The notes: generated from the sequence alone by a model not told the origin. Numbered from the stretch's first letter, positions 13,470-30,501 are shown. The stretch is 54,670 bases of DNA from Acidobacteriota bacterium (GCA_046757765.1 JBHHYX010000001.1:1-54670); one strand, 5' to 3'. Numbers and translations: made by a program.

Positions 13470-14180
13470 CTATCCTCCGGGGCGGGGCGTCTGGCACGAG
13501 TCCTCTCCTGGTAAGAAATTCCGAATCGACTCGGCTACTGTGCGTGTGACCTCATCGGCTGGCCGCGCAGCGTCCAGGATGAGAAAATTCGGGACGATTC
13601 TCTTCAGTCGCAGGTACTCTCTACGGCGCTTTTCCAGCAACTCGACGCTCCCTTCGCCCTTGCGAGCGAAGAGCACTTCAGCCGGGGCGTCAAGGCAGAT
13701 CACTAAATCAGGCCTGGGATAGAAGCGTTTGAGCACAAGGCCGTGGATTCGGCGGACGAGTCCTCGCCGGTCCTCACTCTGGACATCATGGGCGTAATAG
13801 TCGCAAAAAAAGTGCCGGTCAAGCAGGACGATGAAGCCACGGTATTGGCAATACCATGCGTAGACTTGCCGAAACCACTCTTCGGCCATGAGGTTGAGCA
13901 CCCACAATGTGGATTTGAGTTGCCTCAGGGCGCACGCGATCCCGTTCCCGGAACGTCTTCGGGCGACTGCCGCAGGAGGGGGGCCACCTTGACAAGTGGA
14001 CTTGCCCAGGCCGCGCTTCATGCTGTGCAGGAAACGCGTAGTGGGTAAGAGGAGATTGCAGGAGTCCAGGTTGACGCCCATGTAAAGGTACTTCAGGGGG
14101 AGCCGGAGTTCATGCGGAAGCCGCCGACCGACCGTGGACTTGCCCGCCCCGTCGGCTCCGACCAGCGCAACAGTTATCAT
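13470..14180 (-). CDS. Stand-alone P-loop NTPase / nucleotide-kinase-like protein (paralog of the C-terminal half of 29113..30501)
   Basis: Walker A ALVGADGAGKST. The segments FIVLLDRHFFCDYY and YPRPDLVICLDAPAEVLFARKGE align with RFVVFDRYVYDSW and FPRPDLVLLLDAPGQVLYRRKGE of the fused protein. Confidence 0.7.
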   Translation of the reverse strand: MITVALVGADGAGKSTVGRRLPHELRLPLKYLYMGVNLDSCNLLLPTTRFLHSMKRGLGKSTCQGGPPPAAVARRRSGNGIACALRQLKSTLWVLNLMAEEWFRQVYAWYCQYRGFIVLLDRHFFCDYYAHDVQSEDRRGLVRRIHGLVLKRFYPRPDLVICLDAPAEVLFARKGEGSVELLEKRRREYLRLKRIVPNFLILDAARPADEVTRTVAESIRNFLPGEDSCQTPRPGG

Positions 14181-15375
14181 GATCTATTCCCTCGTTGCGG
14201 CATCTCAACAGGGTCTCGATCACCTGATTGACCTTGTCGCCGCTCTGATTCCATGCAAAGTTTCTCTCCACGAAGCGACGGGCTCGGGCATCCGGCCGGG
14301 GGTCCCGGGAGAGTTCGATGATTCGGCCAGCGACCTCTTCGACCCAAGACCGCCATCCCCTCACCACCTGGATGGGGGCCGGTTGACCCCGCTCCGTTCG
14401 CAATCCCTCAGCCGCCAATGGAGAGGCGATGATCGGCACTTCCATGGCCATCGCTTCCAGCAGCTTGTTCTGCATACCGGCCGCAAAGCGCAAGGGGGCA
14501 ACAAACAGGGTGGCGGCGTTCAAGTAGGGGCGCACGTCATGAACAAACCCCGTCACGCTGACACCCGGCTGCCGGCCCAGTTCAACAAGCCGAGGAGTGG
14601 GATCACGGCCGACGACTATGACGCGAACATCTGGAAGCACGGTTCTCAAGGGGGGAAGAATCTTTCTGATCAGGCAAACCGCGGCATCCACGTTGGGCCG
14701 GTAATCCATGGCCCCGGTAAAGACGAGGGTACGATCACCCAGCCTTGCCGCCGACCGTTTCCAGAAATCAAGATCTACGCCGTTGTGCACGATCGTTGTG
14801 GGGTTTCTGTGGTTTCCCACAACTGCCTCCCGATCGCGGGCGGAAATAAAGAGGGAATGCTGGGCCCGCAACAGGAGACGTCGTTCCCTTTGACGGACGG
14901 AGAGGTACTCCAGGAGAAGCAGAATCAGCCGCGGCGGGCCCGCATACCGCATGCTCCGACGGATTCTCATGGAGGTCGCGTCGCAGAAGTCGGCAATCAG
15001 GGGCAACTCAGCGACGGGTTGGACGGCCGGGAAGGTGTATTTACCACAAAAAACCAGGTCGAAGCGCTCCCTTGAAGCCAACTCCTCGACCGCTTGCCGC
15101 ATTTGGCCCACCGACTTGTCGACCCCCATCAGGGACCGCATGCGTCTCAGGCACTTTTGAAGAGGCGCACGGCGCCTGGCGGGAACGCGAAAGACCTGAA
15201 CGCTCCGGGTAAACGGGCGCAGTGCCGCCAGGTGCTCTCGCCTGAAGGTTGGAGTGGCCAGAGAGAGGAGAGTAATAGTGTGGCGGCGAGCCAGTTCCTT
15301 GATCAGGAAATAGTGCCGCAAGTACCCGCTTGTCAGTGGATAAGGGAAACCATTGCTCAGATACAGAATATGCAT
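14110..15375 (-). CDS. GT4-family (GT-B fold) glycosyltransferase
   Basis: 421 aa. MHILYLSNGFPYPLTSGYLRH... is typical of a GT4 N-terminus. The C-terminal domain has the E-x7-E-like region (NKLLEAMAMEVPIIAS). The 3' end overlaps the next gene by 71 nt. Confidence 0.8.
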   Translation of the reverse strand: MHILYLSNGFPYPLTSGYLRHYFLIKELARRHTITLLSLATPTFRREHLAALRPFTRSVQVFRVPARRRAPLQKCLRRMRSLMGVDKSVGQMRQAVEELASRERFDLVFCGKYTFPAVQPVAELPLIADFCDATSMRIRRSMRYAGPPRLILLLLEYLSVRQRERRLLLRAQHSLFISARDREAVVGNHRNPTTIVHNGVDLDFWKRSAARLGDRTLVFTGAMDYRPNVDAAVCLIRKILPPLRTVLPDVRVIVVGRDPTPRLVELGRQPGVSVTGFVHDVRPYLNAATLFVAPLRFAAGMQNKLLEAMAMEVPIIASPLAAEGLRTERGQPAPIQVVRGWRSWVEEVAGRIIELSRDPRPDARARRFVERNFAWNQSGDKVNQVIETLLRCRNEGIDHDNCCAGRSRRGGQVHGRSAASA

Positions 15376-15521
15376 CCTTCACTCTCCAGTCGTGGATTTC
15401 CCACACCCGCCGACTGCGGTCCCCAACCTCGGTCTGGTGGCGGGAGCGACACCGCCACTCGCGAGCCTCAGTTTTCCACAAGACGAGTGGCTGCTCCGGC
15501 CGGGCCTGGCTCTGCCGGCGG

Positions 15522-16556
15522 TCACCACTCCAACTCGGCATGGTGTTCGATGGAATAGCGCCATAATGCGTAGTATCGGTTTTGTCGCAGCCAACTGGCC
15601 GAGTGACCTTCAAGCGGCCCCCCCCGCTCGTTGCGAAAGCTAATGCGACACACCAGATTGGCCAGATAGCGGACCCAGACTGCCACGAACAAGGCTTTGA
15701 GGATCTCGGTTGTTAATTTCAGCCGAACCGCATACGCCTCGGCATAGACCCCGGCCCAGGCGGCCGGATTGAAGAACGCCGCCTGAAACGCCTTCAAACA
15801 GGCCTCGGTCGAACGGGCCTTGTGGCGAGCAAAGGCCGCATAGGTCAGAAAGAGGAAGAGGTCACAGGCCGGTAGCCCTATCGGATCGGCCAACTCCCAG
15901 TCGACAACGCCGACCCTCCCGTTTCCGAGAGAGATCAGGTTGGGGTGGCTCAAATCCCCGTGCTCAAACACCAAGGGAAGGTCTACGCGGCGCAAAGCTG
16001 CCACGATTTCCCCTGTCCGCTCCAACAGGAGCTTCTCTTCGCCGCAAGGGGAAAGTCCCTCTTCCAAACGCCGCAGGGGCTTTTCGACGAGTCTTTCATA
16101 CCAGGCGGAGTCAACTGCCGACGAAGTGTGCGCCGGCAACTGCAGTGCGAACAGCCAGCTGAGGATGGACTGACACCACTGATCGGGGTCTGCCCTCAGC
16201 GCCGCGGGATTCAATGGGAGCCCGACAAGGGCGGTTTCGACCAGGATGGATCGCCCTCGATACATTTCAAATGCCAGCACTCGTGGTGTCGAATCGAAAC
16301 CGTTCGGCCGACGTGCCTGGATCGCCCGCAGATTGGCCGCCTCCCGCCACAGGTTTCTGGCGGGGCCACTCAGGCGGGGCACTTTAGCCACCAGCACCGG
16401 ATCGGGCAGCCCTTCCGGCAGAGCGATGAACAGAACATGGGTCGATGTTCGAAAGCGGGGAGTCAGAATGACGCAGGTCAATTGTTCGGGAGCCCCAAAT
16501 TGCTGAAGTCCACAGCGTTCCCAGTTCTCTCGGAGAAAAGAAGAGAAAGTATTCAT
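15522..16556 (-). CDS. Aminoglycoside-phosphotransferase (APH)/choline-kinase-like protein kinase-fold enzyme
   Basis: Catalytic-loop motif FEHGDLSHPNLI followed by VVDWE. Paralogous to the C-terminal half of 25512..27293. Confidence 0.65.
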   Translation of the reverse strand: MNTFSSFLRENWERCGLQQFGAPEQLTCVILTPRFRTSTHVLFIALPEGLPDPVLVAKVPRLSGPARNLWREAANLRAIQARRPNGFDSTPRVLAFEMYRGRSILVETALVGLPLNPAALRADPDQWCQSILSWLFALQLPAHTSSAVDSAWYERLVEKPLRRLEEGLSPCGEEKLLLERTGEIVAALRRVDLPLVFEHGDLSHPNLISLGNGRVGVVDWELADPIGLPACDLFLFLTYAAFARHKARSTEACLKAFQAAFFNPAAWAGVYAEAYAVRLKLTTEILKALFVAVWVRYLANLVCRISFRNERGGPLEGHSASWLRQNRYYALWRYSIEHHAELEW

Positions 16557-16644: not shown

Positions 16645-17718
16645 TCAGCGCGCGGAGTTGCCTCCGGGGACCGAATGTGTCCAGTCAGTCCAACCCATGT
16701 TCTTGCCGCAGGCTGTAGGCGAATGGTTCCAGAAGCTGGTTCCATAGAAGTAATCCACCAGCGGCAGTTGCCAGGCGTCGTCCCCCTGGACGGGAAACCC
16801 TGCCTCACGATAGAGCCACTTATAGGCCCGCAGCAAAGCTCGATCCCCCCACTCAAAACTGTCGAAACCCGCACGGTGCAAAATCACTGCTTGGACAATG
16901 GCCCCTTGCAAGGCCTCATAGACGTAGTTTTCATGGGGTGGAGGCCATCTGAACTCGCCGCCCCGACGCTGGTCATCGGGCAAGACACCGTCAATCAAAT
17001 GAGCGCCTTTCCAGCAACCTCTTGGGTTGATTCCGACGGGGTTGTTGGGATCACACTGCCAGGAAAGATCGTTTCCGAACTGGAAACCGTTGTAGGCCTT
17101 TGTCTCACCCAGCCATCCCCTGAAGACCCGGGCAGTGCGCTCCAGTTCTTCCTGATCTCTCAGGTAGGCGGCGACCGCCGCCCGGCTGGCACCCGCATGA
17201 GTACCCCAGTTGTTGGGCCTTTTTTCGTGGGTCGATCGTAGCGTTCTGTCCCGCAGAGGCTCGTCCAGCGTTTCCCCTAACCAGGATCGAAAAGGGCGGT
17301 CTCCAGCTTCTGGAAGGTGGACGAGGTCGGCGGCGATAACGTAGGCGGCCAACTTTCGCCCCAGCGCCAGCGTGCGCCCCCCCCGCTCGCTGCCGATCGC
17401 ATCGAGACAGTGTTGGATCACTTCGAGACGGTATTTCTCTTCTCCGGTGCGGGCATACACGAGAGCCTTGGCCAGAACGCTGACATTGTTGTACTGATCC
17501 TGGTCGCTCAAGTCAGGGGGCCCGGCAGGCCGGTCGGCTCCCTTTTTCAAGCGCGCCCAGGCCCGGCCCCAGGTCGGCAGTTCGGCCAACTCATCCGGGC
17601 TGATCCAGATTCCCTGCTGGTTCTGTCGACCGGGAGGGGCGGCGGCAAGAAGGCTCGCCAGCAAGACCAGGGTGGTGACACTAACGCTAACCAAAAATAT
17701 TTGAAATTTTGATTGCAT
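16645..17718 (-). CDS. Secreted alginate-lyase/heparinase-like (alpha/alpha-toroid) polysaccharide lyase candidate
   Basis: Signal/anchor MQSKFQIFLVSVSVTTLVLLASLLAAA. The internal KRPNNWGTHAG resembles the NNHSYW-type motif of alginate-lyase-domain proteins. Assignment is from memory. Confidence 0.5.
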   Translation of the reverse strand: MQSKFQIFLVSVSVTTLVLLASLLAAAPPGRQNQQGIWISPDELAELPTWGRAWARLKKGADRPAGPPDLSDQDQYNNVSVLAKALVYARTGEEKYRLEVIQHCLDAIGSERGGRTLALGRKLAAYVIAADLVHLPEAGDRPFRSWLGETLDEPLRDRTLRSTHEKRPNNWGTHAGASRAAVAAYLRDQEELERTARVFRGWLGETKAYNGFQFGNDLSWQCDPNNPVGINPRGCWKGAHLIDGVLPDDQRRGGEFRWPPPHENYVYEALQGAIVQAVILHRAGFDSFEWGDRALLRAYKWLYREAGFPVQGDDAWQLPLVDYFYGTSFWNHSPTACGKNMGWTDWTHSVPGGNSAR

Positions 17719-17978: not shown

Positions 17979-19496
17979 TCACGATCCGGCTCCACCAGTC
18001 CATGCCATCGGCTCCAAGGCGGCATCGACTGGAGCTTTCTCCCGGGCCTGAAAAATACGTAACGCGGCTCCGGCCAGGCCCAGCAAAAGCCAGTAATAGC
18101 GCTGGTAGGACATGTGAAGAAACAGGGCGGTCCCCAGGTAGCACACAATCCCAAAAAAGAAGGCGGTGGCCAGACCCGCCAGGTCGGGATGCGCCTCCCG
18201 CATCCGGGAACGGGCCACCCACAGCCGCCGCAGCATGGAGCCGACGATCGCCATGAACAGACAAAGCCCGATCAACCCGGTCTCAGCCGCCAGCTCAAAA
18301 TAGAGTGTGTGAGCTCTTCTGGGCTTGGGGAGGTCGCGAAAGGCAACAGCGGGATTCAACTGGTACTCCATCGAGTAAAAAGGCGTGTAATTTCCGGGTC
18401 CGACACCCAGAAGAGGATGGTCGAGGAAAACCATCAGAGCTGCCAGCATCTCGGTGGTCCGCCCCCTGATGACTGCTTCCGGCTCGATCTCGGCCTGGCG
18501 CGAAAACAATCCTTCAACACCCCAAAGAGTTTCCAGCCTTGTCAGATAGCCCGGGGCTGCGAACAGCGCCATTATGACGAGACCGCCAACAGCGGCCAAC
18601 CCCCGGGAAGGCCGGATCATCCGCAGCAGGGGAGCCAGGAGGATAACGACGACAATTGTGACGAACGCCCCGCGGGAATAGGAGAGCAAAATTCCCGAAA
18701 GAATGAGCAATCCAATGGCGGCGGCCACAATTCTCTTCCACCGGTGACGGGCCACCCAGTACTGAAAAAACGCCAGGGGCAAGATCATCAGGAGGATTTG
18801 CGCGTAGCGATTGGGGTCGCCCAGCGGGCCCTGGGCCCGGTCGCCCGTGCGGACCCTTTCATCCGGTGCGGTCTCCTTCGTCACGAACAGACGATTTCTC
18901 TGCGCCAGCCCCCCAAACTGATTCTCGTAGGAATGGGTCACCTCCTGGAACAGGCTGAGTGCGCCAAGCAACGCGCCCGTGAGCAGCAGCACCCAGATGA
19001 TGCGCCTCAGGGTGGAGGGCCGGCGCACCACGTTGACAACAAGCCAGTAGAGCACCAGCCCTTCAACGACGAAGTTGGCCGTCCAGCCGACCGCAACCTT
19101 CAGATCTTTCGCGAAAACGCTGGAAATCAGGAGAGCGAACAGGAACATGAACATCCAGATAAAAGTTCGATCGGCGACCAGGTTCTCCTGGCGCAGGAAC
19201 AGCTGATCGGTCAACGGAATGAGGAGCAGCAATGAAGCTGAGCCGGCCACTAAGGAAGGGACTCCGTAAAGCTGGGTGGCAATCCCACCGACATTGCTGT
19301 AGAGAAAACAGACGACGGCCAAAGTCGCCAGCTCCGGCCAGCGGGAAGCGATACCCACACCGACCCCCAGCGCCAGGGCCGCCGCCAGCAGGAAGGGGTT
19401 GTGTGCCAACATCAAGAGCACCAGAGCACCGCAACCAAGAAACAGTGCCGCCGGTCGGAGCCTTCTCTCCAATGAGACGAAGTCAGGATTGAGCAT
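17979..19496 (-). CDS. O-antigen ligase/Wzy-like polymerase family membrane protein
   Basis: 505 aa, polytopic. The central Wzy_C-like block is LLILSGILLSYSRGAFVTIVVVILLAPL. Confidence 0.75.
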   Translation of the reverse strand: MLNPDFVSLERRLRPAALFLGCGALVLLMLAHNPFLLAAALALGVGVGIASRWPELATLAVVCFLYSNVGGIATQLYGVPSLVAGSASLLLLIPLTDQLFLRQENLVADRTFIWMFMFLFALLISSVFAKDLKVAVGWTANFVVEGLVLYWLVVNVVRRPSTLRRIIWVLLLTGALLGALSLFQEVTHSYENQFGGLAQRNRLFVTKETAPDERVRTGDRAQGPLGDPNRYAQILLMILPLAFFQYWVARHRWKRIVAAAIGLLILSGILLSYSRGAFVTIVVVILLAPLLRMIRPSRGLAAVGGLVIMALFAAPGYLTRLETLWGVEGLFSRQAEIEPEAVIRGRTTEMLAALMVFLDHPLLGVGPGNYTPFYSMEYQLNPAVAFRDLPKPRRAHTLYFELAAETGLIGLCLFMAIVGSMLRRLWVARSRMREAHPDLAGLATAFFFGIVCYLGTALFLHMSYQRYYWLLLGLAGAALRIFQAREKAPVDAALEPMAWTGGAGS

Positions 19497-19532
19497 GAGC
19501 TATTCGCCCGGGAGGTTTTAACCTTGGCAGCT

Positions 19533-20586: not shown

Positions 20587-20736
20587 TCAGAATCTGGCAA
20601 CTGGCTGCAGCCGAGGGACAAGATTTGATGGAACACTGCAAACTGAACCGAAGCGTCAGCGCCCGGCCAGGTCCGGATGGCCACTCACCCACGTTCGTGG
20701 TTCAGTGACTTGGCAGCCGAATTGCTCAACCTGGCT
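20587..20736 (+). repeat. R1 structured repeat, copy D (intact mini-ORF 20628..20708, plus strand)
   Basis: TCAGAATCTGGCAACTGGCTGCAGCCGAGGGACAAGATTTGATGGAACACTGCAAACTGAACCGAAGCGTCAGCGCCCGGCCAGGTCCGGATGGCCACTCACCCACGTTCGTGGTTCAGTGACTTGGCAGCCGAATTGCTCAACCTGG. The stop codon of gene 20726..21991 lies inside the 3' flank of the repeat. Confidence 0.85.
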
Positions 20737-21991: not shown

Positions 21992-24248
21992 AATCGTAAA
22001 GGTATTCGGGCCTGCTGATGTCCACATTGTTGATGACCGTACCCAAAACTCGGGCCTTGACCCGGGCCAGGTGCCAGAGAGCCTTCTCGACTGCGGCCCG
22101 AGGCGTCTTGCCTCCTTCAATCACCACAACGACCTGGTCCGCTTTGCGGGCAAGAATCAACGCATCGGTATTGGGAATCAGAGCCGGCGTATCCATGACA
22201 ATAGCATCAAAGAACTGGCTCAGCAGGTTCAGTGCACGGTCCATTTGAGGTGAAGCGATCAGCTCCACCGCGCTGCCTGCCCCAGTCCCGGCGGGGAGGA
22301 GAAACAGATCCCGCATCTCGGTCTCCCGAACCTGCGAACACAGATTGGACTGGGCGCAAAGGAATTGACTGATCCCCTGCCCGCTCTCAATGCCAAAAAA
22401 ACGGGGAATTGACGGAGAGCGCAGATTGAGGTCGATGAGGAGAGTGCAGGCGCCGCTTTGGGCCAGGGAGATAGCCGTGTTGACGGCCGTGGCCGTCTTC
22501 CCTTCTCCCTGCAAGGCCGAGGTTATGAGAACTCTGACGGGTCGCGCCGCCTCACCCTGCAAAATTGCCGTGCGTAACCAGCGGTAGGCTTCCCAGTGCC
22601 GACTCTCACGTCCATCACCAGCAACGGGCACCACTTCGACAGGTGGACCGCCGTTCTCAGGGGGGGGCAATCGTCCAGAAAGAGTGGGAATCGCCTCAAG
22701 TTTCGGAATCACTCCCAGGCAGGGCGCCGAAAGAAGTCTCTCCGCTTCCTCCGCCGTTCTGAGAGTATCGTCACTGGATTCCAGCAGCAGAGCCGACCCC
22801 AGACCAATCATCAATCCGAGGAGCAACGAGATGGCGAGGTATTGAGACCTGTTCGGCCAATAGACCTGCCGTGGCACTCGTCCACGCTCGACCAATCCGG
22901 TCTCAACGGAATCCTCCGCCACCGCCACACCGGCTTCTTTGACCCGCTGCAGGAGGCCTTCGTAAAGGGACTTGTTGGTTTCCACCTCTCGCTGGAGCAT
23001 CTTGAATTCGATCAGATCCTGATCCAGCTGGCTGGCGGACTTCACTTGTTTTCGCAGGCGTTCCGAAAGAATCCGGTAATGGTCCAGCGATACCTGGTAG
23101 TCTTGCTTTGCCTGGTCCAGAGCCCGTTGTTTCTCGAGGCGGAGCTGTTGGGCCACCGTCCCCGTTTGTTTCTCAATTCGGACCGTCTCAGGCCAGTTGC
23201 GCCCGAACTGAGTCTGCAAACTGGACCGTTTCTGTCTCAGAGTGGTGAGCCGAGCTTCCAGGTCGAGGATGGTGGGGTTTTCCAGGCCAGCGGGAAAATT
23301 CTCCGCGGAAGCTTCATTCAAGGCCAACCGTTCTGCCTGCAGCGACATCAAAGTCGATTCCACTTTGGTCAACTCACGGTTCAGGTCGACCAACTTCTGC
23401 AACGCGATTCCCTGGTTCTCATCGAGTTTCAAAATGTCATTTTGACGGGCGTATCGGACCCACTTGGCCTCAGATGCCTCCAGATTCGCCTTCACCTCCA
23501 GCAACTGCTTCTGAAGCGCGTCCCGAGTCCTTTCCAGAGCCTGACTCCGAGCCTCGAACTCCGACTCGAAGAAGGTCTCGGCAAAGGCGTTGACGATTTT
23601 GGCGGCAAGTCGAGGATCGTGGGCATCGTAGTCAAGCTGAAGAAGCTGGGTGCCCGAAATGAGATGCACTTCAAGGTTTTTCAGCAGTTCGTCGGCAAGC
23701 TCCACGTCCTTCGCCCCACCGTCTGACGGCTCTGTCTTGAAGAGGCGGTGGACGGAAGTGAAGAGCTGGAAGATCGGATCCAATAGCACTCCCCGGTGGC
23801 TTTCGAGGTTGAAGACGGGGTCCTCCGCCAGACCCAGACGTTGCACGACTCGTCCAGCCAACCGATCACCCCGCACAATCTCTTTCTGCGTCTGAACATA
23901 AGTTTCGACTCCCCGTAGTCCCCAGGTGGCGCCGCCCGGGCTCGGGTAGGGCGACACGTTGCCGGAGCCGGGACTGACCTGGATCTTGGCAGTGGAGCGG
24001 TAGGTCGGGGTAAGCGTCATGAGCTGTGCCACCGTCATCAGCATGAGCACGAGCGTAGCGCTTGAGATCAGCAGCCAACGCCTCAGCAACAGGTGCCACA
24101 AATAGGAATAGAGGTTGGGCAGGCTGATTTCATCCCTCCGGGGAGGGGGCGTTGGCCGGGCTTGCTCCCGTGCAAGCCAACCAAAGGAGGCCAGGATGGA
24201 GCGGCGTCTCACCAGGTCGTTCAGATTTCGTCCGCTGACGCTTTCCAT
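21963..24248 (-). CDS. Polysaccharide co-polymerase / tyrosine autokinase (Wzc/GumC/EpsG-like: Wzz domain + CpsD/CapB-type ATPase)
   Basis: The ORF runs to 24365. It is trimmed to the ATG at 24248, 1 nt after the upstream stop codon. It has two TM segments flanking a long coiled-coil periplasmic region. The C-terminal P-loop is LITSALQGEGKTATAVNTAISLA, and the DxD-like region is LLIDLNLRSPS. Confidence 0.85.
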   Translation of the reverse strand: MESVSGRNLNDLVRRRSILASFGWLAREQARPTPPPRRDEISLPNLYSYLWHLLLRRWLLISSATLVLMLMTVAQLMTLTPTYRSTAKIQVSPGSGNVSPYPSPGGATWGLRGVETYVQTQKEIVRGDRLAGRVVQRLGLAEDPVFNLESHRGVLLDPIFQLFTSVHRLFKTEPSDGGAKDVELADELLKNLEVHLISGTQLLQLDYDAHDPRLAAKIVNAFAETFFESEFEARSQALERTRDALQKQLLEVKANLEASEAKWVRYARQNDILKLDENQGIALQKLVDLNRELTKVESTLMSLQAERLALNEASAENFPAGLENPTILDLEARLTTLRQKRSSLQTQFGRNWPETVRIEKQTGTVAQQLRLEKQRALDQAKQDYQVSLDHYRILSERLRKQVKSASQLDQDLIEFKMLQREVETNKSLYEGLLQRVKEAGVAVAEDSVETGLVERGRVPRQVYWPNRSQYLAISLLLGLMIGLGSALLLESSDDTLRTAEEAERLLSAPCLGVIPKLEAIPTLSGRLPPPENGGPPVEVVPVAGDGRESRHWEAYRWLRTAILQGEAARPVRVLITSALQGEGKTATAVNTAISLAQSGACTLLIDLNLRSPSIPRFFGIESGQGISQFLCAQSNLCSQVRETEMRDLFLLPAGTGAGSAVELIASPQMDRALNLLSQFFDAIVMDTPALIPNTDALILARKADQVVVVIEGGKTPRAAVEKALWHLARVKARVLGTVINNVDISRPEYLYDYGSDRPFRS

Positions 24249-24249
24249 G

Positions 24250-25512
24250 TTACTCCTCACTTGCCCCTGTCGCTCGGCACTGAGTACGAAAGAGCCGGGA
24301 GAGACGGGAGGCATTGATCTCGAGGTTAAAGTCCCGTATGACCGTCCTTCGGGACGACTGCCCAATCCGCCGGCGAAGTCCGGGATCCTGTTTCAGCCTT
24401 CGCAAAGCTCTGGCCAGCCCGCGCGAGTCTCGGGGGCGAACCAGAAACCCATTGCGGCCGGACTCAATCAACTCCGGAATCCCGGAGATGTTGCTGGCGA
24501 CAACTGGAAGAGAACAGGCCATGGCCTCCATCAGGGCCACGGGAATCCCCTCCCGTTTCCCCTCCCTCGTTGGGACGCTCGCCAGAACCACAACGTCGGC
24601 TTTCCCAAGCATGTTCAACACCTCCTGCCTGGACCTGGCCCCGAGCAGATGGACGCAGTCCCGCAATTCCCAGCGGACAATAAGCCTTTCAATTTTGGCG
24701 CGGAGCGGCCCTTCGCCCACTACATGGCATCGAAAATCGACACCTCCCCGTACCAGTTCGGAACAAGCTTCCAGCAAGTATCGATGCCCCTTAACTTCTT
24801 CCAGTGATCCGACACAGAGAACCTGGAGTGGAGCCTGGGCATCGCCACCGCCGTTGGTCAGGCGGGGATGGAACAGCTCGGTATCGACCCCACAATGAAT
24901 GACATGAATCTTCTGGCGGCTTTTCTCCCCGCATTCCCGAACCATGAGCTCCTTGTTGTAGCGTGAGACGGTAATGCCAAAGGCGGAGGCCTCGGTCTTC
25001 CGGGCCAGCATCCGCCTGTCAACATGCAGGTCCGAGCCGTGAGCCGTAAAGCTGTAGGGTATGCCGGTCAGTCGATGAATAATAAATGCAGCCATGGTGG
25101 GGTGGTTCACGAAGTGGCAATGGATGTGGTCGATCCCCTCTTCTTGCATGAGGTACGCAAAGCAGACAGACTTCGGCAGAATGGCGATGGCGCCACAGAA
25201 AAAATTGAGGCTGCCCCAAGTCTCCGACAACACCTCCATCCACAACCTGAAATAGCTTTTCCAGCTTCGGCGCATGAAGTAGAGGTTGGCCTTCAGAATC
25301 GAAAGCGAGAAGAAATGAAGATAGTGGGCCCGTTGGACCAGCCGTTGAGCTTCAGGGTGATTGACCGGCCGGCGCTCTCGCAGCAAAGGGTAGACCTCTA
25401 TTGAAAACCCTTCTTGCTCCATTCGAATCATTTCGTAGAGAACAAAGGTCTCCGTCAACTTGGGAAAACGAGACATGATATAGGCAATTTTCGGCCCGGC
25501 CGAGTCCGTCAT
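24250..25512 (-). CDS. GT4-family glycosyltransferase (WcaL-like)
   Basis: The ORF runs to 25548. It is trimmed to the ATG at 25512, which overlaps the upstream stop as TGATG. KIAYIMSRFPKLTETFVLYEM..., HCHFVNHPT and FTAHGSDL are typical of this GT4 subgroup. The EX7E region is EGIPVALMEAMACSLPVVAS. Confidence 0.8.
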   Translation of the reverse strand: MTDSAGPKIAYIMSRFPKLTETFVLYEMIRMEQEGFSIEVYPLLRERRPVNHPEAQRLVQRAHYLHFFSLSILKANLYFMRRSWKSYFRLWMEVLSETWGSLNFFCGAIAILPKSVCFAYLMQEEGIDHIHCHFVNHPTMAAFIIHRLTGIPYSFTAHGSDLHVDRRMLARKTEASAFGITVSRYNKELMVRECGEKSRQKIHVIHCGVDTELFHPRLTNGGGDAQAPLQVLCVGSLEEVKGHRYLLEACSELVRGGVDFRCHVVGEGPLRAKIERLIVRWELRDCVHLLGARSRQEVLNMLGKADVVVLASVPTREGKREGIPVALMEAMACSLPVVASNISGIPELIESGRNGFLVRPRDSRGLARALRRLKQDPGLRRRIGQSSRRTVIRDFNLEINASRLSRLFRTQCRATGASEE

Positions 25513-27293
25513 CACGCTCCAGCGACCGAATCGTCCGCGGGCTGCCATGGCGACGCTTCACACCAAACGGCGGCTCTGGACGGGTGGGGAAAAACAAGAG
25601 CAGCCAGGCGTGCTCTGTTGCGCGGTTCCAAGATCAGACGAAGCAGGCTGACGTAACGCCCGTCTTGCACGGAAGAGGGGGCGAGCATCGCGACTTCCTT
25701 CAGAGCCCGATGCATCCAGCAACTATAAAAGAGCGGCTCTACCAGACTCTGCCTCACTCCTATTCTCTGGCAGTAGTCTCGAATCGCCTCGGAGAAGAGG
25801 AGCGTCAAAGGTGAACCGAGCAAAAAATGTCGGACAAAGTTATCCAGGGCATCGCCATGGCCCTTGATTCGACGAGCCCAGGACCCGTAAGCCCTCAGAA
25901 AATAGAAAAGATCCCAAAGCGGCATGCCTTTGAGCTCACTGGACTCCCAGTCGAGGAAAATGACGTCGCCGGAGGGGGAAACCAGGATGTTGTGAGTGCC
26001 CGGGTCTCCATGCTGGACGACCGTCGGAAGTCTCACTTCGCGACGAGTCAGTCGTTCCAGTTGGCCCTCCAGGAAAGCTCTTTGGCGCATGTCGAGCCGA
26101 TAGATTCCATTAAAACCATGGTACAGTCGTTGCAGGGCAGTGCCCATTGCTTCACGTTGGCTCTCCCGGGCGGAAGAGGCTCCGAGTTGAGTGATCCAGG
26201 AAATGCCGGCCCGGGCTATTGGACAGGAGGACGTCGCCCGGGTTCGGGCTCGAAACGGGTCTCCCTCGATGGCCTTTTGCACCGCGATCGCCCTCCCGGC
26301 GTGATACCCGAGGAAGAGTGGTGTCGGCAGCGTCCCCTCCTTGACAAACCCTTTGTGAACCAATAATGAGAGAACTCGATGCTCATGTTCCAGCCGGTAG
26401 TTGAAGCAGGGCGACCGCGTCACCTTCGCCACCACATCGGCGCAACCCCTCCTGGTGAAGAAGAAAAAGATGATTTTGTTGGAGTTGCACTTGCCCCGAG
26501 CCGAGACTCCAAACCGATGGTCCTCGAGATCGATCCCGTGATCGGCCGCCAAAGTGACCAAGTACTCAGGCGGGCGCTTCCGTTCATCCGGCATGAGCGA
26601 TCGCCGGATGAGACCGGCCCTGCGGGGGAGGATGTGCTGAAGCACACCCATCCGGCTCAAACATCTTCCGATTCGGCTCAGCACCCGGTTCAGCAGCGAT
26701 CGCCCCGTCAAGACCTTGCTGAAAAAAAAGTGGCCGATGCGTTCATCTCCGACAGGCCCAGCCGTACGCATGGGGCCATGAAAGGGAGTCAGCCAGTAGC
26801 TTTGCACCGCGCCCAGACCCTCTTGCCTCAGATGCCTGAGGAGGCTCCGCTTGAGTCGGTGGCCGGCGAGGCGAGAGTGCTCGAAGTAGATCACTCCATT
26901 CGAGTTCAAAACCCGATTCAGGTCGGCGATCAGAAAATCGTCCCGGGCCAGTCCCTCAATGGATTCCAGTCTTTCGATGAAAACAAGGTCTATCGTCCGC
27001 GCCTGGAAAGGCAAGCTCTGGTTCTCGCTTCTCCCAATGACGGTCAGGTTCCATTCGGGAAAGCTCTTGCTGAGGAATTGGGCTCTTTCCAGTTCGGATC
27101 CATCCCTGACCACGACCGACAAGTCCGTCGACCCTTTTGACAAGACTGTCAGCGTCGATGGCGAGGGCATGCCCAGCGAGACAATGCGCCTCATCTCAAG
27201 GCTCGGCATCAGGAATCGCCAGTCGGCGCCAGCCAGATCGTTTTCAAGGTTGGTGCCTGGAGAGAAATCGCTTTCTAAGCAAGTTTCGAGCAT
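25512..27293 (-). CDS. Fusion protein: N-terminal methyltransferase-like fold + C-terminal APH/kinase-fold domain
   Basis: 593 aa. The N-terminal ~180 aa are paralogous to 19757..20395 (DWRFLMP...). The C-terminal part carries VVQHGDPGTHNIL and FLDWE, and is paralogous to 15522..16556. Confidence 0.65.
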   Translation of the reverse strand: MLETCLESDFSPGTNLENDLAGADWRFLMPSLEMRRIVSLGMPSPSTLTVLSKGSTDLSVVVRDGSELERAQFLSKSFPEWNLTVIGRSENQSLPFQARTIDLVFIERLESIEGLARDDFLIADLNRVLNSNGVIYFEHSRLAGHRLKRSLLRHLRQEGLGAVQSYWLTPFHGPMRTAGPVGDERIGHFFFSKVLTGRSLLNRVLSRIGRCLSRMGVLQHILPRRAGLIRRSLMPDERKRPPEYLVTLAADHGIDLEDHRFGVSARGKCNSNKIIFFFFTRRGCADVVAKVTRSPCFNYRLEHEHRVLSLLVHKGFVKEGTLPTPLFLGYHAGRAIAVQKAIEGDPFRARTRATSSCPIARAGISWITQLGASSARESQREAMGTALQRLYHGFNGIYRLDMRQRAFLEGQLERLTRREVRLPTVVQHGDPGTHNILVSPSGDVIFLDWESSELKGMPLWDLFYFLRAYGSWARRIKGHGDALDNFVRHFLLGSPLTLLFSEAIRDYCQRIGVRQSLVEPLFYSCWMHRALKEVAMLAPSSVQDGRYVSLLRLILEPRNRARLAALVFPHPSRAAVWCEASPWQPADDSVAGA

Positions 27294-27583
27294 TGACCTC
27301 TTCTCCTGCTGCCCACAGCGGCGGCGGTGGTAAAGAGTTGAAGAAATGGGGGATCGGAAAGTGGGAGCCGCCTCAGGCGGCGAACGACCCCCTTGCGCGT
27401 TTCGCTTCCTCTCAAGTTCCCGAGGCGTTTGAGTTCGGACAACTGCTTTTTTCCATCATTTATACGCGTCCGGATGAGAGCCAGTTGACCTTTGCAAGCG
27501 AGGGACCCGAGAGAACCTGGAGTCAGACGGATGATTCCATCCTTTGGATCGATCGGCTCCGGGAGACTAATAGGGTCAGGCAA
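27275..27583 (-). CDS. Hypothetical small protein filling the only gap in this sub-operon
   Basis: 102-aa ORF that overlaps the flippase stop by 8 nt and the next gene start by 19 nt. I recognised no motif. The coding call rests only on position and frame continuity. Confidence 0.3.
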   Translation of the reverse strand: MPDPISLPEPIDPKDGIIRLTPGSLGSLACKGQLALIRTRINDGKKQLSELKRLGNLRGSETRKGVVRRLRRLPLSDPPFLQLFTTAAAVGSRRRGQCSKLA

Positions 27584-29165
27584 GGAAGAAACGGAGAACA
27601 GGTATCCGCAACAGGGCTGGAAAAGTCTGGCCGATATCCAGTTTTTTCCTGCCCGCGGCCAGCACGAATAGAGCCGTCAAAAGCACAAAAGTCGCCCCCA
27701 GGTAGACGTTGCGGGGAGCGAAAAACTGTACTGCCACCAGGGCAAGCACTCCACCGCCGATGGTCAGGTAGAAGGAGACATATTTCCAGTCCAGCACGTG
27801 CAGCCCCGAAACGAGTCCCAGCCCGGCCTGTTTGAGGATGTTATGGAAAACCATTGTTCCCGCGGTCCCCAAGGCGGCGCCCAGTGCTCCGTAACGGTAA
27901 ATCAGAATCATGTTCGCGGCCGCGTTGGTGGCCAATGTCAGCAGGTCAATGGCCACTGTGTAGCGCACTTTGCCCAGGACCTTGAGGGTGACACCGTTAA
28001 ACCCGAGGGAGGCATTGAAGTAATAGCCCAATGCCAACAAGGCCAGTATCGTTGCCGACGACTCATAACGGGCCCCGTAGAGAAAAGTGGTCAAGGGAGA
28101 GGCCATACAGAAGGTCATGGCAAAGATTGGAAAAGAGAGAACGGCTGTCCAAGCCGCAGTGTTCCAGTAAAGGCTGTTGATGCCACGGGTATCCTTCCTG
28201 GCAAACAAACGGGCGGCCGCGGGAGTGTAGAGCATGCCCAGACTCGACATGACGAGAGTGTTGAAGCGGGCCGCCGGCAACACGACCCGAAAGCGAGCCA
28301 CTTCCGAGGCATCGTGAAAATACCCCAGCAGAAGGACACTCACCGGGTTCATCACCACAGTCAACAAGTCGGAAGTCAGCACGGGGAGAGTGAAGGAAAG
28401 AACTTCTCGCACCGGGATGCGGAGCGTCCGGAGGCGGCAAGACTGAAAAAGCCCTCGACGGCGAAAGATGCCCAACAACACCCAGAGGTAAAGAGTCAAC
28501 CCGGCGACACTGGCCAGTAGGTACCCCCAGGCCAGAAACTTGACGCTAGTCCCCAAGCTGATCAAGAGCAAAACCACCAGGAGTTTCAGACCCGGACCCA
28601 AAACATACTTGCGGAAGAAGATCGCCCGCGGCTCGCCGAAGGCAGCAAACAAGTGCACAAGAAGCAAGTCAAGTCCTTCCACGGGAACCAGAAAGACCAG
28701 AATGGAAAGCAAAACTACAGCCCGGTCTCCCTGAATCAGAAAATGAGAGAAAAGCCCCGGGGCAAGGTAGAAAGTGCCGATGATTGTCAAACCGGTTGCG
28801 ATGACGACACCGCCTGACAGGAGAATCGTTCCGAACAATTTTTCGATCTCACCCTTCTCGTCGTAGATGGGCACAAAGCGACTGATCGCGCGCTTGAACC
28901 CCAAGGTGGCAAACGCCTGCCAGAATGCGACGAACGAGAGTGCATAGAAAAACAGGCCGTAATCGTCCGTGCCAAGGTAGCGGGCAAGTGACACCTGGGC
29001 CGCAAAGTTGAGCCCTACGGCGATCAGCCTGCCTGTCACCAGAAGGGTCGAACCTCGGATCTGCGGAGCTGCCGTTCCGCCGCCCGACTGGGAAGAAACC
29101 TTCTCCAACCCCTCAACTGTCACAGCTGGGCCTCTGACGACTTTCCTGACGGTTTCCGTAGACAT
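27576..29165 (-). CDS. Wzx-type polysaccharide flippase (MOP superfamily)
   Basis: 529 aa with about 12-14 predicted TM helices. The N-terminal block LLVTGRLIAVGLNFAAQVSLARYLG is typical of polysaccharide biosynthesis (Wzx/RfbX) proteins. Confidence 0.75.
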   Translation of the reverse strand: MSTETVRKVVRGPAVTVEGLEKVSSQSGGGTAAPQIRGSTLLVTGRLIAVGLNFAAQVSLARYLGTDDYGLFFYALSFVAFWQAFATLGFKRAISRFVPIYDEKGEIEKLFGTILLSGGVVIATGLTIIGTFYLAPGLFSHFLIQGDRAVVLLSILVFLVPVEGLDLLLVHLFAAFGEPRAIFFRKYVLGPGLKLLVVLLLISLGTSVKFLAWGYLLASVAGLTLYLWVLLGIFRRRGLFQSCRLRTLRIPVREVLSFTLPVLTSDLLTVVMNPVSVLLLGYFHDASEVARFRVVLPAARFNTLVMSSLGMLYTPAAARLFARKDTRGINSLYWNTAAWTAVLSFPIFAMTFCMASPLTTFLYGARYESSATILALLALGYYFNASLGFNGVTLKVLGKVRYTVAIDLLTLATNAAANMILIYRYGALGAALGTAGTMVFHNILKQAGLGLVSGLHVLDWKYVSFYLTIGGGVLALVAVQFFAPRNVYLGATFVLLTALFVLAAGRKKLDIGQTFPALLRIPVLRFFLA

Positions 29166-30501
29166 TCCAAATCAGAGAAATGGCCTGGCGGCGCACCGCG
29201 TCGGCTCCAACAGTGGAGTCCACGACCGCCATCCGGGTAATTCTGTCCTTCAGACCCAGGTAGGCTTGTCGTTGAGCCTCCAGCCACCCCGGCGTGTGCT
29301 CGCCTTTTCTCCGGTAGAGAACCTGCCCCGGGGCATCCAGCAGGAGAACCAGATCGGGGCGGGGAAACCCGAATCCGAGCAGCCGCCGCTTCAATCTTTT
29401 CAGGCCTGAGGGTTTCTCCCTGGCCACCCAGGAGTCGTAAACGTAGCGATCGAAGACGACGAACCGTCCCCGCAACCGTTGGTACACCGCTACAGTCAAT
29501 CTGTACTGCTGATCGAGCCATCGATGGATGGCTCGGATGACCTTCAAGAACGCCCTCTTGAGACTGTAAGAACCTGCCCGGGAGGAGGACCCTGGGAAAT
29601 CCTCGATCCATCCGGGAGAAGGCAAACCGACCGTTCGGGAACGGGGATTACCGCCCATGTAAATCGGAATCCCACGAATGAAGGCATCCTTCGAGAGGTG
29701 GCGTGCCAGCGTACTCTTGCCTCCCCCGTCGGGGGCCAGCAGGACCACCCATACGCCCTGCCGAAAGAGAGCAAAGAGAAGACGTCGGCCTTTTCTCAGG
29801 GTCAGACCCCGGAGGAGACGCCACAGGGTGGCGAGGGGTTCGCACCAGAACATCCTCCGGATCAGAGCCGCGCGCCGCGCCATGAGCGACTGCCAATTCC
29901 GCCGCTCCACACTCTTAAAAATAAGAGAGGCCGAAAGGGCCGGGGCCAGCATCCCGTTGACGGCCCTTTCCAGCCTCCGCTCACCACCCGGCTCGTCCAG
30001 GACCCTACGATACAATGCGACCAACTCCCGGCCCCGCAGGAGGAAACTGTGAAAACCCGTATTGTGGATCAGACACTTGGTCAGCAGCACGATAAAGCCA
30101 TCTTCGGGAGCGAGGAGATAGGTTTCACCAAAGCGCCGACGCCTCTCCAGACAGGCGCCGGCAAAGCCCAGACGAAGGGCTCGGATCGGCTTGCCAAAGC
30201 AAAGATCCGTCACCACATCGAGCTTGATCCAGAGATCTTCTTCTCGGGCATAGGACACGAAGAAGTGATGGGGGGCGTGTCCCCAGGAGGGAACAGGGAT
30301 GAAACCAAGCCGGCAAAGGACCTCACATAAGCGACTCAAATGAGCGGCCCTTGCCAGAAGATCGATTTCCCGGACCGGTTTTTCCGCACGCAATTGTCTG
30401 TAGGGACCTATCAAGGCATAGCGAATGCACTTCTCTTCAAAGGCCGAGAAAACTGCGGCCAGGAGAGGGTGCAACTCGGGCTGGAACGTCTTGGTTGGCA
30501 T
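29113..30501 (-). CDS. Fusion protein: N-terminal uncharacterised nucleotidyltransferase-like domain (NTP_transf_5-like) + C-terminal P-loop kinase-like domain
   Basis: The ORF runs to 30570 and is trimmed to the ATG at 30501 (MPTKTFQPELHPLL...). The N-terminal part (CIRYALIGPY...EIDLLA...LGF) resembles the PF14907-type family from memory. The C-terminal part has Walker A LLAPDGGGKST and is paralogous to 13470..14180. Confidence 0.55.
   Translation of the reverse strand: MPTKTFQPELHPLLAAVFSAFEEKCIRYALIGPYRQLRAEKPVREIDLLARAAHLSRLCEVLCRLGFIPVPSWGHAPHHFFVSYAREEDLWIKLDVVTDLCFGKPIRALRLGFAGACLERRRRFGETYLLAPEDGFIVLLTKCLIHNTGFHSFLLRGRELVALYRRVLDEPGGERRLERAVNGMLAPALSASLIFKSVERRNWQSLMARRAALIRRMFWCEPLATLWRLLRGLTLRKGRRLLFALFRQGVWVVLLAPDGGGKSTLARHLSKDAFIRGIPIYMGGNPRSRTVGLPSPGWIEDFPGSSSRAGSYSLKRAFLKVIRAIHRWLDQQYRLTVAVYQRLRGRFVVFDRYVYDSWVAREKPSGLKRLKRRLLGFGFPRPDLVLLLDAPGQVLYRRKGEHTPGWLEAQRQAYLGLKDRITRMAVVDSTVGADAVRRQAISLIWNVYGNRQESRQRPSCDS

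Follow-up and report, generated by a model that had tools for sequence, protein, structure and literature searches.

Five kinase-type enzymes and a nucleotidyltransferase within a conserved sugar-polymer export cluster of an Acidobacteriota bacterium

Introduction

Kinases, a nucleotidyltransferase (NTase) and methyltransferase-type genes lie together in or beside a glycan locus in the LicA/LicC/LicD phosphocholine and C. jejuni MeOPN (Cj1415-1418) pathways, and PAPS synthase provides a precedent for the fusion of an NTase to a P-loop kinase. Aminoglycoside enzymes (APH and the pol-beta-type ANT) O-phosphorylate or O-nucleotidylylate the hydroxyls of amino-sugars. The C-terminal Ser of a peptide is the substrate of a further pair, formed in lasso peptide clusters by an HprK-homolog kinase (paeninodin type) and the product of pseudomycoidin gene N, which we take to be a member of PF14907. 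The kinase installs a phosphate and the NTase adds to that same phosphate, the pseudomycoidin enzyme being termed only a putative nucleotidyltransferase (PMC8498205).

WbdD of E. coli O9a (PDB entries 4AZS, 4AX8, 4AZT, 4AZW and 4UW0) is the closest known analogue of a two-domain protein described below. This bifunctional enzyme joins an N-terminal methyltransferase to a kinase and transfers phosphate to a sugar hydroxyl in a lipid-linked glycan (PMC3482155, from which the domain limits used here are taken).

The window analysed here is a 54,670-nt stretch of DNA from an Acidobacteriota bacterium (GCA_046757765.1 JBHHYX010000001.1:1-54670), with 13470-30501 as the region studied; the source genome is that of an uncultured member of the phylum. 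The locus contains five kinase-type enzymes and an NTase, all uncharacterised, inside a conserved sugar-polymer export cluster (Table 1).

Layout and conservation of the cluster

The original prediction described three domain types that each occur once free and once fused, and held that the fusions mark the free versions as acting together. All three paralog pairs proved to be real, and the neighbourhood comparison revealed the whole gene set to be a conserved cluster shared by many uncultured phyla. Relatives occur in 79 genome loci, every one of them in a MAG, and represent at least eight phylum-level groups (KSB1, Calditrichia, Acidobacteriota, Chloroflexota, Actinomycetota and others), with the recurrent order BacTransf-Wzc-NTase/TMK-GT4-GT2-Wzy-Wzx-MT/APH-HprK-MT-APH-GT4-TMK-ATPgrasp-deacetylase. 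No published description of this gene set was found in the literature.

Joint action of the methyltransferase-like (MT-like) and APH domains is strongly supported, beyond what could be seen in the window's sequence alone. Of 32 loci with a free MT-like gene, 29 have the free APH gene directly after it. Fusion of the two is seen in 4 loci, and domain counts co-vary across loci (rho 0.68, p 1e-4). A global protein library contains MT-like/APH fusions in both domain orders and, once, an MT-like domain fused to a GNAT acyltransferase. Wzx is directly followed by the MT-like/APH fusion in 53/62 loci. APH and thymidylate-kinase-like (TMK-like) domain counts correlate weakly within +/-10 kb flanks (rho 0.37, p 0.055), and some loci (Gaiellales) carry the fusion with no TMK-like gene in range.

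Catalytic motifs are retained in every kinase of the locus. On sequence inspection neither the kinases nor the deacetylase has a signal peptide, as would fit enzymes working on the cytoplasmic side.

Assignment to a PEP-CTERM/XrtA system was considered and is not supported by the family models or the protein tails. The system-specific GT, PCP and ligase models scored under their cutoffs (TIGR03087, 244.6 against 316.65 bits; TIGR03018, 127 against 230; TIGR03097, 79 against 188 bits), and a PEP-CTERM tail is absent from both large secreted proteins.

Table 1. Features of the cluster, in window coordinates
Feature	Position	Strand	Remarks
Large repeat protein, Flg_new_2 repeats	6842..10468	-	downstream end of cluster; relative in 8/79 related loci
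ATP-grasp ligase	10625..11893	-	PF02786 and PRK12767-type model
Polysaccharide deacetylase (PF01522)	12000..13142	-	no obvious signal peptide
Free TMK-like P-loop kinase	13470..14180	-	paralog of C-terminal half of 29113..30501
GT4 glycosyltransferase	14110..15375	-	related to TIGR03087 (stp1), under model cutoff
Free APH-fold kinase	15522..16556	-	paralog of 25512..27293 C-terminal domain; K58, HGD199-201, N206, D218-W-E intact
Alginate-lyase-like protein	16645..17718	-	N-terminal hydrophobic signal or anchor, therefore probably extracytoplasmic
Wzy-type polymerase (Wzy_C)	17979..19496	-	family profile match
Free MT-like domain protein, DWRFLLP motif	19757..20395	-	paralog of 25512..27293 N-terminal domain
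HprK-C-terminal-domain-like P-loop kinase, GWAKGGKTETLLAF	20726..21991	-	distant PF07475 likeness
Wzc-type chain-length determinant fused to BY tyrosine autokinase	21963..24365	-	
GT4 glycosyltransferase, EpsE-like	24250..25548	-	
WbdD-like two-domain protein (MT-like + APH)	25512..27293	-	profiles, AF2 model, Foldseek
Wzx-type flippase (Polysacc_synt)	27576..29165	-	directly upstream of MT-like/APH fusion
Pol-beta-type NTase fused to TMK-like P-loop kinase	29113..30501	-	NTP_transf_5-like N-terminal half
Polytopic membrane protein, family not assigned, invariant GEExSWGQR	30437..31288	-	in 22/79 related loci
GT2 glycosyltransferase	33807..34967	-	conserved cluster member
Initiating sugar-phosphate transferase (Bac_transf)	35058..35945	-	
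Wza-type outer-membrane polysaccharide export protein	37470..38453	-	

Two MT-like/APH kinase units

Two paralogous units of an MT-like domain and an APH-fold kinase are present in the locus, one fused and adjacent to the flippase, the other split. In the fusion, residues 1-~215 adopt the class-I-methyltransferase fold, the SAM motif being degenerate, and residues ~250-580 that of an APH/eukaryotic-like kinase with an intact catalytic set (K290, HGD428-430, N435, D448-W-E); the AF2 model has a pLDDT of 85. The free kinase aligns to residues 275-527 of the fusion at 27% identity (E 4e-13), upholding the predicted paralogy, and both exceed the PF01636 gathering cutoff of 23.2 (free, 55.2 bits; fused, 41.0 bits). 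Each retains the catalytic Lys, HGDxxxxN loop and DWE motif, which are invariant in the alignment. Although the fold is that of APH(2'') and APH(3') (Foldseek target-normalised TM 0.45-0.59), the genes lie in an EPS assembly operon without resistance context, unlike those of aminoglycoside-modifying enzymes, and NCBIfam APH models give 26 bits against a cutoff of 205.

For the MT-like pair, the predicted paralogy stands at the profile level, but the name methyltransferase holds only for the fold. In a pairwise comparison the alignment is confined to 37 aa around DWRFL(L/M)P (E 3e-4), whereas profile-profile comparison of the free family with the first 215 residues of the fusion family yields a probability of 99.2% (E 8e-20, 157 columns), against E 0.13 for the control comparison with the kinase half. 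The free family alone has no match in Pfam or the PDB; the fusion-family profile matches class I methyltransferases at E 0.002 (residues 36-147), and Foldseek returns methyltransferases and WbdD. SAM motif I of the fusion family has the consensus V-C-L-G-V-P-S, that is, G-x-P-x-x instead of GxGxG, and in 28 of 32 sequences Ser or Cys occupies the position of the SAM-ribose-binding Asp, where strand beta2 ends. In the absence of conserved canonical SAM-binding motifs, the fold should not be taken to imply methylation. Judged from sequence, docking of a substrate or of the machinery, and not methylation, is the most likely role of the MT-fold domain. It no longer carries the canonical SAM signature and occurs in fusions with kinases, on either side of them, and with an acyltransferase.

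WbdD, not named in the original prediction, accounts for all of the best five Foldseek PDB matches to the fusion model, with both domains covered (E 2.6e-9). The proteins share the order of an N-terminal class I methyltransferase fold (~210 aa) followed directly by a eukaryotic/APH-like kinase domain, and each is encoded within a polysaccharide biosynthesis locus. The differences are several. There is no detectable sequence similarity, WbdD not being listed at E<=1 when the 32-member family profile is compared with PDB sequences. Motif I and the beta2-terminal acidic residue are replaced in the fusion as described, and the ~250-aa C-terminal coiled coil of WbdD is lacking in the AF2 model, which ends ~60 residues past the kinase core in short helices only. 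The relative domain orientation also differs (rmsd above 17 Å), which explains the global TM of 0.22-0.28. WbdD acts in an ABC-transporter (Wzm/Wzt) pathway and caps O-antigen chains, whereas the present locus is of the Wzx/Wzy/Wzc/Wza kind, with no ABC transporter among the ORFs scanned from 6842 to 38453, and has the domain pair twice, one copy being split. On the predicted structure, then, the resemblance is one of fold and architecture only.

TMK-like kinases and the NTase fusion

The predicted relationship between the free TMK-like protein and the C-terminal half of the NTase fusion is confirmed by 30% identity over 232 aa (E 1e-22), the alignment covering residues 273-481 of the 29113..30570 ORF. 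Both proteins have a Walker A motif (free, GADGAGKST; fused, APDGGGKST) and DR[HY]. The profile of the fusion C-terminal half matches PDB TMK at E 9e-10, the best 50 Foldseek matches to the fusion are all TMK, and PF02223 is matched in 36/36 family members. The window proteins resemble Tmk in fold (target-normalised TM ~0.65), P-loop and DRY motif, but are not assigned as dTMP kinases, for they score 24.3 and 20.3 bits with PF02223 (cutoff 27) and 23.5 and 17.8 bits with TIGR00041, the dTMP kinase equivalog (cutoff 83.25). The stretch that links the P-loop helix to the DRY strand sets the family apart from Tmk, for it has an insertion of 40-50 residues and a Y-M-G-x-N motif. Given this insertion and family-specific motif, the substrate is probably not dTMP.

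The nucleotidyltransferase character predicted for the N-terminal half shows only at the family level, where 22 of 36 members match PF14907 (NTP_transf_5; best E 2.6e-7), but the window copy is sub-threshold, with no match at E<=0.01. The pol-beta carboxylates are present as E45-x-D47 and D95, E45 being at least 90% conserved and both aspartates invariant. The Foldseek matches listed for the fusion are to TMK, with no structural match to the N-terminal half among them.

These genes invite a different account, in which a donor is made first. The APH-fold kinases would phosphorylate a free small alcohol or sugar, in the manner of LicA, NahK or AmgK, and the NTase would convert the product to an NDP-activated donor. 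The fused P-loop kinase would 3'-phosphorylate that donor, following PAPS-synthase or C. jejuni MeOPN logic, or recycle released NMP, and the group would be attached to the polymer by a further transferase, for which the MT-fold domain and the GEExSWGQR membrane protein are possible candidates. APH-fold enzymes do include small-molecule kinases, profile scans found no ordinary NDP-sugar synthesis genes in the window's cluster, and the NTase is almost always fused to the TMK-like kinase (41 loci, against 5 with the NTase only). Exactly one NTase occurs in 23 of 27 full loci, as expected of a single donor pathway, and a phosphonate gene-cluster family has a TMK + PF14907 pair next to its PEP mutase (PMC8942020). 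The NTase, however, is of the pol-beta rather than the LicC/RmlA type, and the ORFs scanned include no phosphotransferase of the LicD, Stealth or TagF type. The protein families differ from those of the LicA/LicC/LicD, MeOPN and PAPS pathways, Pfam and NCBIfam scans of the locus ORFs giving no LicC/LicD, Cj1416-type NTase or APS-kinase equivalog match. The near-obligate adjacency of fusion and flippase, and the duplication together with an extra GT4, better fit modification of a carrier-linked glycan. The donor account is possible but, on balance, doubtful.

The HprK-like kinase and accessory genes

The predicted HprK likeness of the P-loop protein at 20726..21991 is real but distant: it emerges at the family level, the window protein itself being sub-threshold. 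PF07475 is matched in 16 of 22 family members (window copy, 16.5 bits; cutoff 33.3), the family profile meets PDB HprK at E 0.002, and the P-loop GKTETLLAF is similar to that of HprK. TIGR04355 (HprK-related kinase B) matches 19 of 22 members, all under cutoff (window copy, 17.5 against 200 bits). Membership of HPr kinase/phosphorylase (PF07475) or of HprK-related kinases A/B (TIGR04352, TIGR04355) is not supported by the curated cutoffs. In the long ORF, homology with relatives sets in at about residue 90, and the true start probably lies downstream of the one given. The ATP-grasp enzyme is as predicted, with PF02786 above cutoff (23.4 against 19.8 bits) and a PRK12767-type model in agreement (E 8e-15).

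HprK is a protein kinase whose lasso-peptide homologs phosphorylate peptides, eukaryotic-like kinases have the APH fold, and the Wzc BY-kinase belongs to the cluster. The kinase-fold proteins might, in the manner of BY- or Hanks-type kinases, act on Wzc, the glycosyltransferases, Wzx and Wzy, controlling polymer output. It is not obvious where TMK-like enzymes and an NTase would fit in such a cascade of protein phosphorylation, an operon-like block with as many as five regulators, each inherited together with particular glycosyltransferases, would be unusual, and the closest structural matches (APH(2''), APH(3'), WbdD) are small-molecule or glycan kinases rather than protein kinases. Regulatory phosphorylation is thus improbable.

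Still less probable, to the point of being a marginal candidate, is peptide or protein modification, whereby the HprK-like kinase, PF14907 NTase and ATP-grasp enzyme would act on a ribosomal peptide or on the large secreted repeat protein, with Wzy_C as an O-oligosaccharyltransferase. HprK-type kinases and nucleotidyltransferases do tailor lasso peptides (PMC8498205), the closest model for the HprK-like family is HprK-related kinase B, and, as in the lasso pair, an HprK-C-domain-like kinase and an NTase share one cluster. Here, however, the family matches lie under curated cutoffs, and the fusion partner of the NTase is a TMK-like kinase, the HprK-like kinase not being associated with it. No precursor peptide was found, the intergenic gaps holding no conserved small ORF, nor was a lasso cyclase, lasso protease or PqqD-type gene among the ORFs scanned. 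The Flg_new_2 repeat protein does recur, but in only 8 of the 79 loci, and the complete Wzx/Wzy/Wzc/Wza machinery points to a polymer product.

Proposed function

We infer a phospho- or nucleotidyl-decoration pathway at the locus, the function of which would most likely be cytoplasmic phosphorylation of a lipid-linked repeat unit followed by elaboration of the phosphate. A joint reading, to which we accord an even chance, combines a Wzx/Wzy/Wzc-type exopolysaccharide tailoring core with WbdD-like glycan kinases, phosphate extension and an accessory block. Both MT-like/APH units would resemble WbdD in action, as glycan kinases of the cytoplasm that phosphorylate the repeat unit at its hydroxyls while it is linked to undecaprenyl diphosphate and prior to flipping by Wzx. 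The NMP-kinase-like enzymes would take phosphate groups as acceptors and, with the fused NTase, may extend the installed phosphate to a diphosphate, a nucleotidyl group or a glycosyl-phosphodiester, a step proposed because of the lasso-peptide precedent of an HprK-type kinase and a putative nucleotidyltransferase. The accessory block (HprK-like kinase, ATP-grasp ligase, deacetylase and second GT4) would add and decorate one more residue, probably an amino-sugar. The roles suggested for the TMK-like, NTase and HprK-like enzymes draw on analogy. Against the joint reading stand the weak correlation of APH with TMK-like counts, the Gaiellales loci with no TMK-like gene in range, and a likeness to WbdD that is confined to fold and architecture.

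More speculatively, and with considerable doubt, the cluster may make a widely distributed, so far undescribed exopolysaccharide with a multi-step phosphate relay on its repeat unit, and the MT-fold DWRFLLP domain may be a new pseudo-methyltransferase adaptor. Such an adaptor would bring kinases, in either fusion order, or the GNAT acyltransferase to the Wzx-bound, lipid-linked repeat unit. In the relay the glycan kinase would act first, followed by NMP-kinase-like phosphorylation and/or NTase action on the installed phosphate and, if this is true, the polymer would carry sugar-diphosphate, nucleotidyl- or phosphodiester-bridged substituents.

Paralogous domains and family assignments

The original prediction, that a P-loop kinase, an APH kinase and a methyltransferase-like (MT-like) domain each occur once as a free protein and once in a fusion, was borne out for all three pairs. 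Identity is 30% (E 1e-22) between the free P-loop kinase and the C-terminal half of the nucleotidyltransferase (NTase) fusion, and 27% (E 4e-13) between the free APH kinase and the corresponding half of the MT-like/APH fusion. The MT-like pair is weak by BLASTP. Because only the 37-aa DWRFL(L/M)P region aligned (E 3e-4), a free MT-like family was built from related loci and compared by hhalign with the first 215 columns, on the N-terminal side, of the alignment of the fusion family. The two matched over 157 columns (probability 99.2%, E 8e-20); a control comparison of the free family with the kinase half of the fusion gave E 0.13.

The family labels proposed for these proteins stand, though with reservations. 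Both APH copies exceed the Pfam threshold, and the ATP-grasp label is sound. The thymidylate kinase (TMK)-like label is supported by profile (E 9e-10) and by fold, the best 50 Foldseek matches of the NTase/TMK fusion all being TMKs (target-normalised TM ~0.65), but scores lie far under the dTMP kinase equivalog cutoffs, and true thymidylate kinases were ruled out on that ground. NTP_transf_5 is matched by 22 of 36 members of the NTase family, in which the carboxylate E45 is at least 90% conserved and D47 and D95 are both invariant, but the window copy has no match at E<=0.01. Similarly, the HprK-like label is consistent over its family but falls under curated thresholds for the window protein. 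The HprK-like open reading frame (20726..22120, minus strand; 464 aa from stop to stop) overlaps the end of Wzc, and similarity to relatives starts at about residue 85-93; to judge from the sequence, translation probably starts well downstream of both the long-ORF start and the earlier assignment of 21991.

Organization of the locus

The window is one complete 54,670-bp contig of an Acidobacteriota MAG. From ~6.8 to 38.5 kb every gene lies on the minus strand, in a Wzx/Wzy-type exopolysaccharide locus. Signal peptides are absent from all kinase-type proteins, and catalytic motifs are kept in all of them.

Genes of the exopolysaccharide locus in order of transcription, from first (Wza) to last (Flg_new_2 repeat protein)
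Product	Position	Strand
Wza	37470..38453	-
Bac_transf initiating transferase	35058..35945	-
GT2	33807..34967	-
NHL/SdiA-regulated-like protein	31525..33834	-
Membrane protein with GEExSWGQR motif, without assigned family	30437..31288	-
NTase/TMK-like fusion	29113..30501	-
Wzx	27576..29165	-
MT-like/APH fusion	25512..27293	-
EpsE-like GT4	24250..25548	-
Wzc	21963..24365	-
HprK-like protein	20726..21991	-
Free MT-like protein	19757..20395	-
Wzy	17979..19496	-
Alginate-lyase-like protein, secreted	16645..17718	-
Free APH kinase	15522..16556	-
stp1-like GT4	14110..15375	-
Free TMK-like kinase	13470..14180	-
Polysaccharide deacetylase	12000..13142	-
ATP-grasp ligase	10625..11893	-
Flg_new_2 repeat protein, 1208 aa	6842..10468	-

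The 1.5 kb between the initiating transferase and Wza (35946..37469) holds only the overlapping ORFs 36018..36704 (plus strand) and 36162..36785 (minus strand), neither of which matches Pfam; the stretch may contain a gene that escaped annotation or may be regulatory. Just upstream of Wza lies a gene for a sigma-54-dependent transcriptional activator (Sigma54_activat, HTH_8; 39365..40945, minus strand), which may control the cluster. An RND efflux operon (46170..51756, minus strand) encodes an AcrB-like protein of 1025 aa, an HlyD-type adaptor and an OEP outer-membrane factor; in the Chloroflexi locus L003, too, RND pumps are encoded downstream of the cluster.

Other known systems were considered and set aside. 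For a PEP-CTERM/exosortase system, models stayed under cutoff and PEP-CTERM tails were absent from the two large secreted proteins; for the LicABCD phosphocholine and MeOPN pathways, no family of either matched among the scanned ORFs.

Conservation of the gene set

A scan of a genome collection with the MT-like/APH fusion family gave 79 distinct loci, in MAGs only, from KSB1, Calditrichia, Cytophagia-labelled bins, Acidobacteriota, Chloroflexota (many), Actinomycetota (Gaiellales and others), Latescibacterota, Planctomycetota and Armatimonadota. When 20 window proteins were searched against six-frame ORFs of the related loci, the gene set was found to recur, with co-occurrence counts that are lower bounds because the flanks examined were limited to +/-10 kb. 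A Chloroflexota example reads BacTransf-Wzc-NTase/TMK-GT4-GT2-Wzy-Wzx-MT/APH-HprK-MT-APH-GT4-TMK-ATPgrasp-deacetylase. A 'minimal' cluster consists of the NTase/TMK fusion, GT4, GT2, Wzy, Wzx and the MT/APH fusion, to which an 'extended' cluster adds HprK-like, MT, APH, GT4-stp1, TMK, ATP-grasp and deacetylase genes.

The MT-like/APH fusion directly follows Wzx in 53 of 62 loci and the free APH gene directly follows the free MT-like gene in 29 of 32; in four loci (L012 and L015, for instance) the latter two are joined as a second MT/APH protein. In 41 loci the NTase and a TMK-like domain form one protein, against 5 loci with the NTase by itself, and exactly one NTase is present in 23 of the 27 loci with full flanks. 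Numbers of MT-like and APH domains co-vary (rho 0.68, p 1e-4). The correlation of APH with TMK-like domains is weak (rho 0.37, p 0.055), so that strict one-to-one pairing of these two is unsupported.

Wzx/Wzy polysaccharide clusters are usually highly variable. Here Wzx and Wzy are strongly conserved over loci L004-L082 from different phyla, with phmmer E values down to ~1e-160 for Wzx and ~1e-130 for Wzy, which is unusual; such similarity points to a repeat unit of conserved structure and possibly to horizontal transfer of the cluster as a whole.

Several accessory features vary among the loci. In KSB1-type loci (L001:14814-16976, L002:13038-15200) a 720-aa protein with PK, PUA_2 and ATP-sulfurylase matches is encoded directly after Wzy, and sulfate activation may go with the module in some lineages. 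Two ATP-grasp types occur: one near to the window protein (E 1e-115 to 1e-180; L015, L019, L020, L022, L065), which adjoins the HprK-like gene in L015, L019 and L020, and one distant (E 1e-10 to 1e-16; L024, L027, L057, L068, L070), which has the free TMK-like gene on one side and the deacetylase on the other. The GEExSWGQR membrane protein is polytopic and has relatives in 22 of the 79 loci (e.g. L007:4759-5532 and L007:6285-6992), in some as two tandem copies. Its family invariants are W12, E50-D51, E55, G-E-E-x-S-W-G-Q-R (97-105), E123, H127, E209 and E212; Pfam and PDB searches returned nothing significant, and within the pathway it could serve as an extracytoplasmic transferase or hydrolase.

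The MT-like/APH unit and its likeness to WbdD

An AF2 model of the MT-like/APH fusion, from a 32-sequence alignment, has a mean pLDDT of 85.4 and a pTM of 0.86. Its top five PDB matches by Foldseek are all entries for WbdD (E 2.6e-9), the bifunctional E. coli O9a kinase-methyltransferase, followed by APH(2'')/APH(3') enzymes and class I methyltransferases. WbdD comprises a methyltransferase (residues 1-210), a kinase (211-459) and a C-terminal coiled coil (460-708), and in an ABC-transporter pathway it phosphorylates, then methylates, the terminal mannose of undecaprenyl-linked O-antigen (PMC3482155). The two proteins are alike in architecture and fold. Their global TM is only 0.22-0.28, since the two domains are oriented differently, and a sequence-level link was discarded, WbdD not being found by sequence profiles of the fusion family. 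At the motif I positions the family has V-C-L-G-V-P-S rather than GxGxG, and 28 of 32 sequences have Ser or Cys where the Asp that binds the SAM ribose would align; its own invariant motifs are A-x-A-[ND]-W-x-F-L-L-P and W-L-T-P-x-x-G-E-M-x-T-A-V-P. The model lacks the coiled coil. With no profile link, degenerate SAM motifs, no coiled coil and a Wzx/Wzy-type locus in place of an ABC-transporter pathway, the fusion departs from the WbdD family on four of five membership criteria, while being WbdD-like in design.

Among 1.84 billion proteins, the free MT-like family profile found 1166 cluster representatives at E<=1e-3, of which 391 reach E<=1e-30, mostly free proteins of 190-250 aa without a Pfam family; PDB and Pfam searches with the family gave nothing significant. 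Among the 150 matches listed from this global library, MT-like precedes APH in P0435, P0486 and P0490, the order is reversed in P0450 and P0463, and in P0439 MT-like precedes a GNAT Acetyltransf_6 (FemAB/CelD-like) domain. That MT-like and APH are fused independently in both orders is, by Rosetta-stone logic, strong evidence for a functional MT-like/APH unit. The acyltransferase fusion and the degenerate SAM motifs suggest that the MT-like domain is not catalytic and serves instead in docking or in presenting the substrate, and because the APH-MT and acetyltransferase arrangements occur besides MT-APH, the DWRFLLP domain may be a general adaptor for glycan-tailoring enzymes.

A proposed model of repeat-unit phosphorylation

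Functional roles are here drawn from folds, motifs, fusions and synteny. Each cluster block pairs a GT4 with an MT/APH unit, and the MT-like/APH fusion is tied to the flippase gene. The best-supported model is a WbdD-like phosphorylation, in which the MT/APH units would act at the cytoplasmic face, on the lipid-linked repeat unit that has yet to be flipped. Rival readings are a donor-precursor pathway with LicA/LicC- or PAPS-like logic and regulatory protein phosphorylation. A third, modification of a peptide or protein, loses weight since neither conserved small ORFs nor RiPP machinery turned up: intergenic-gap ORFs of at least 25 aa, compared by phmmer with small ORFs of 82 related loci, showed nothing conserved, and Pfam scans of the locus ORFs found no lasso cyclase, lasso protease or PqqD family. 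Lacking a conserved gap ORF and RiPP families, a lasso-peptide/RiPP system was rejected as the main reading.

Under repeat-unit phosphorylation, a further step can be proposed. Phosphate groups are the phosphorylation targets of NMP-kinase-type enzymes. In lasso-peptide pathways a phosphate is installed by an HprK-type kinase and a putative nucleotidyltransferase adds a hexose to it (PMC8498205), and in a phosphonate gene-cluster family PEP mutase is flanked by a TMK and PF14907 pair (PMC8942020). By analogy with this chemistry and these precedents, the TMK-like and NTase enzymes may then elaborate the installed phosphate further.

Significance

Glycan tailoring by WbdD-type kinases in polysaccharide loci is already known. 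What is new here is a duplicated and split MT/APH unit with a degenerate methyltransferase fold in a Wzy-dependent setting, accompanied by TMK-like, NTase and HprK-like enzymes and conserved over many uncultured lineages. A literature search found no paper combining the families of the locus in a polysaccharide context; neither the MT/APH fusion nor the free MT-like protein has a model in NCBIfam, and Pfam lacks one for the free MT-like protein and for the GEExSWGQR membrane protein.

The WbdD architecture is extended to a Wzy-dependent pathway, and an MT-like domain family is defined for which Pfam has no model. The cluster holds five uncharacterised kinase-type enzymes other than Wzc, and a nucleotidyltransferase. 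Recurrence of one gene set, including Wzx and Wzy, over KSB1, Calditrichia, Acidobacteriota, Chloroflexota, Actinomycetota and others implies that abundant uncultured lineages of the environment share one conserved polymer of unusual chemistry. If the proposed stepwise elaboration of phosphate, a phosphate relay, is true, the pathway would modify glycans by a novel type of chemistry and would supply new glycan kinases for glyco-engineering.
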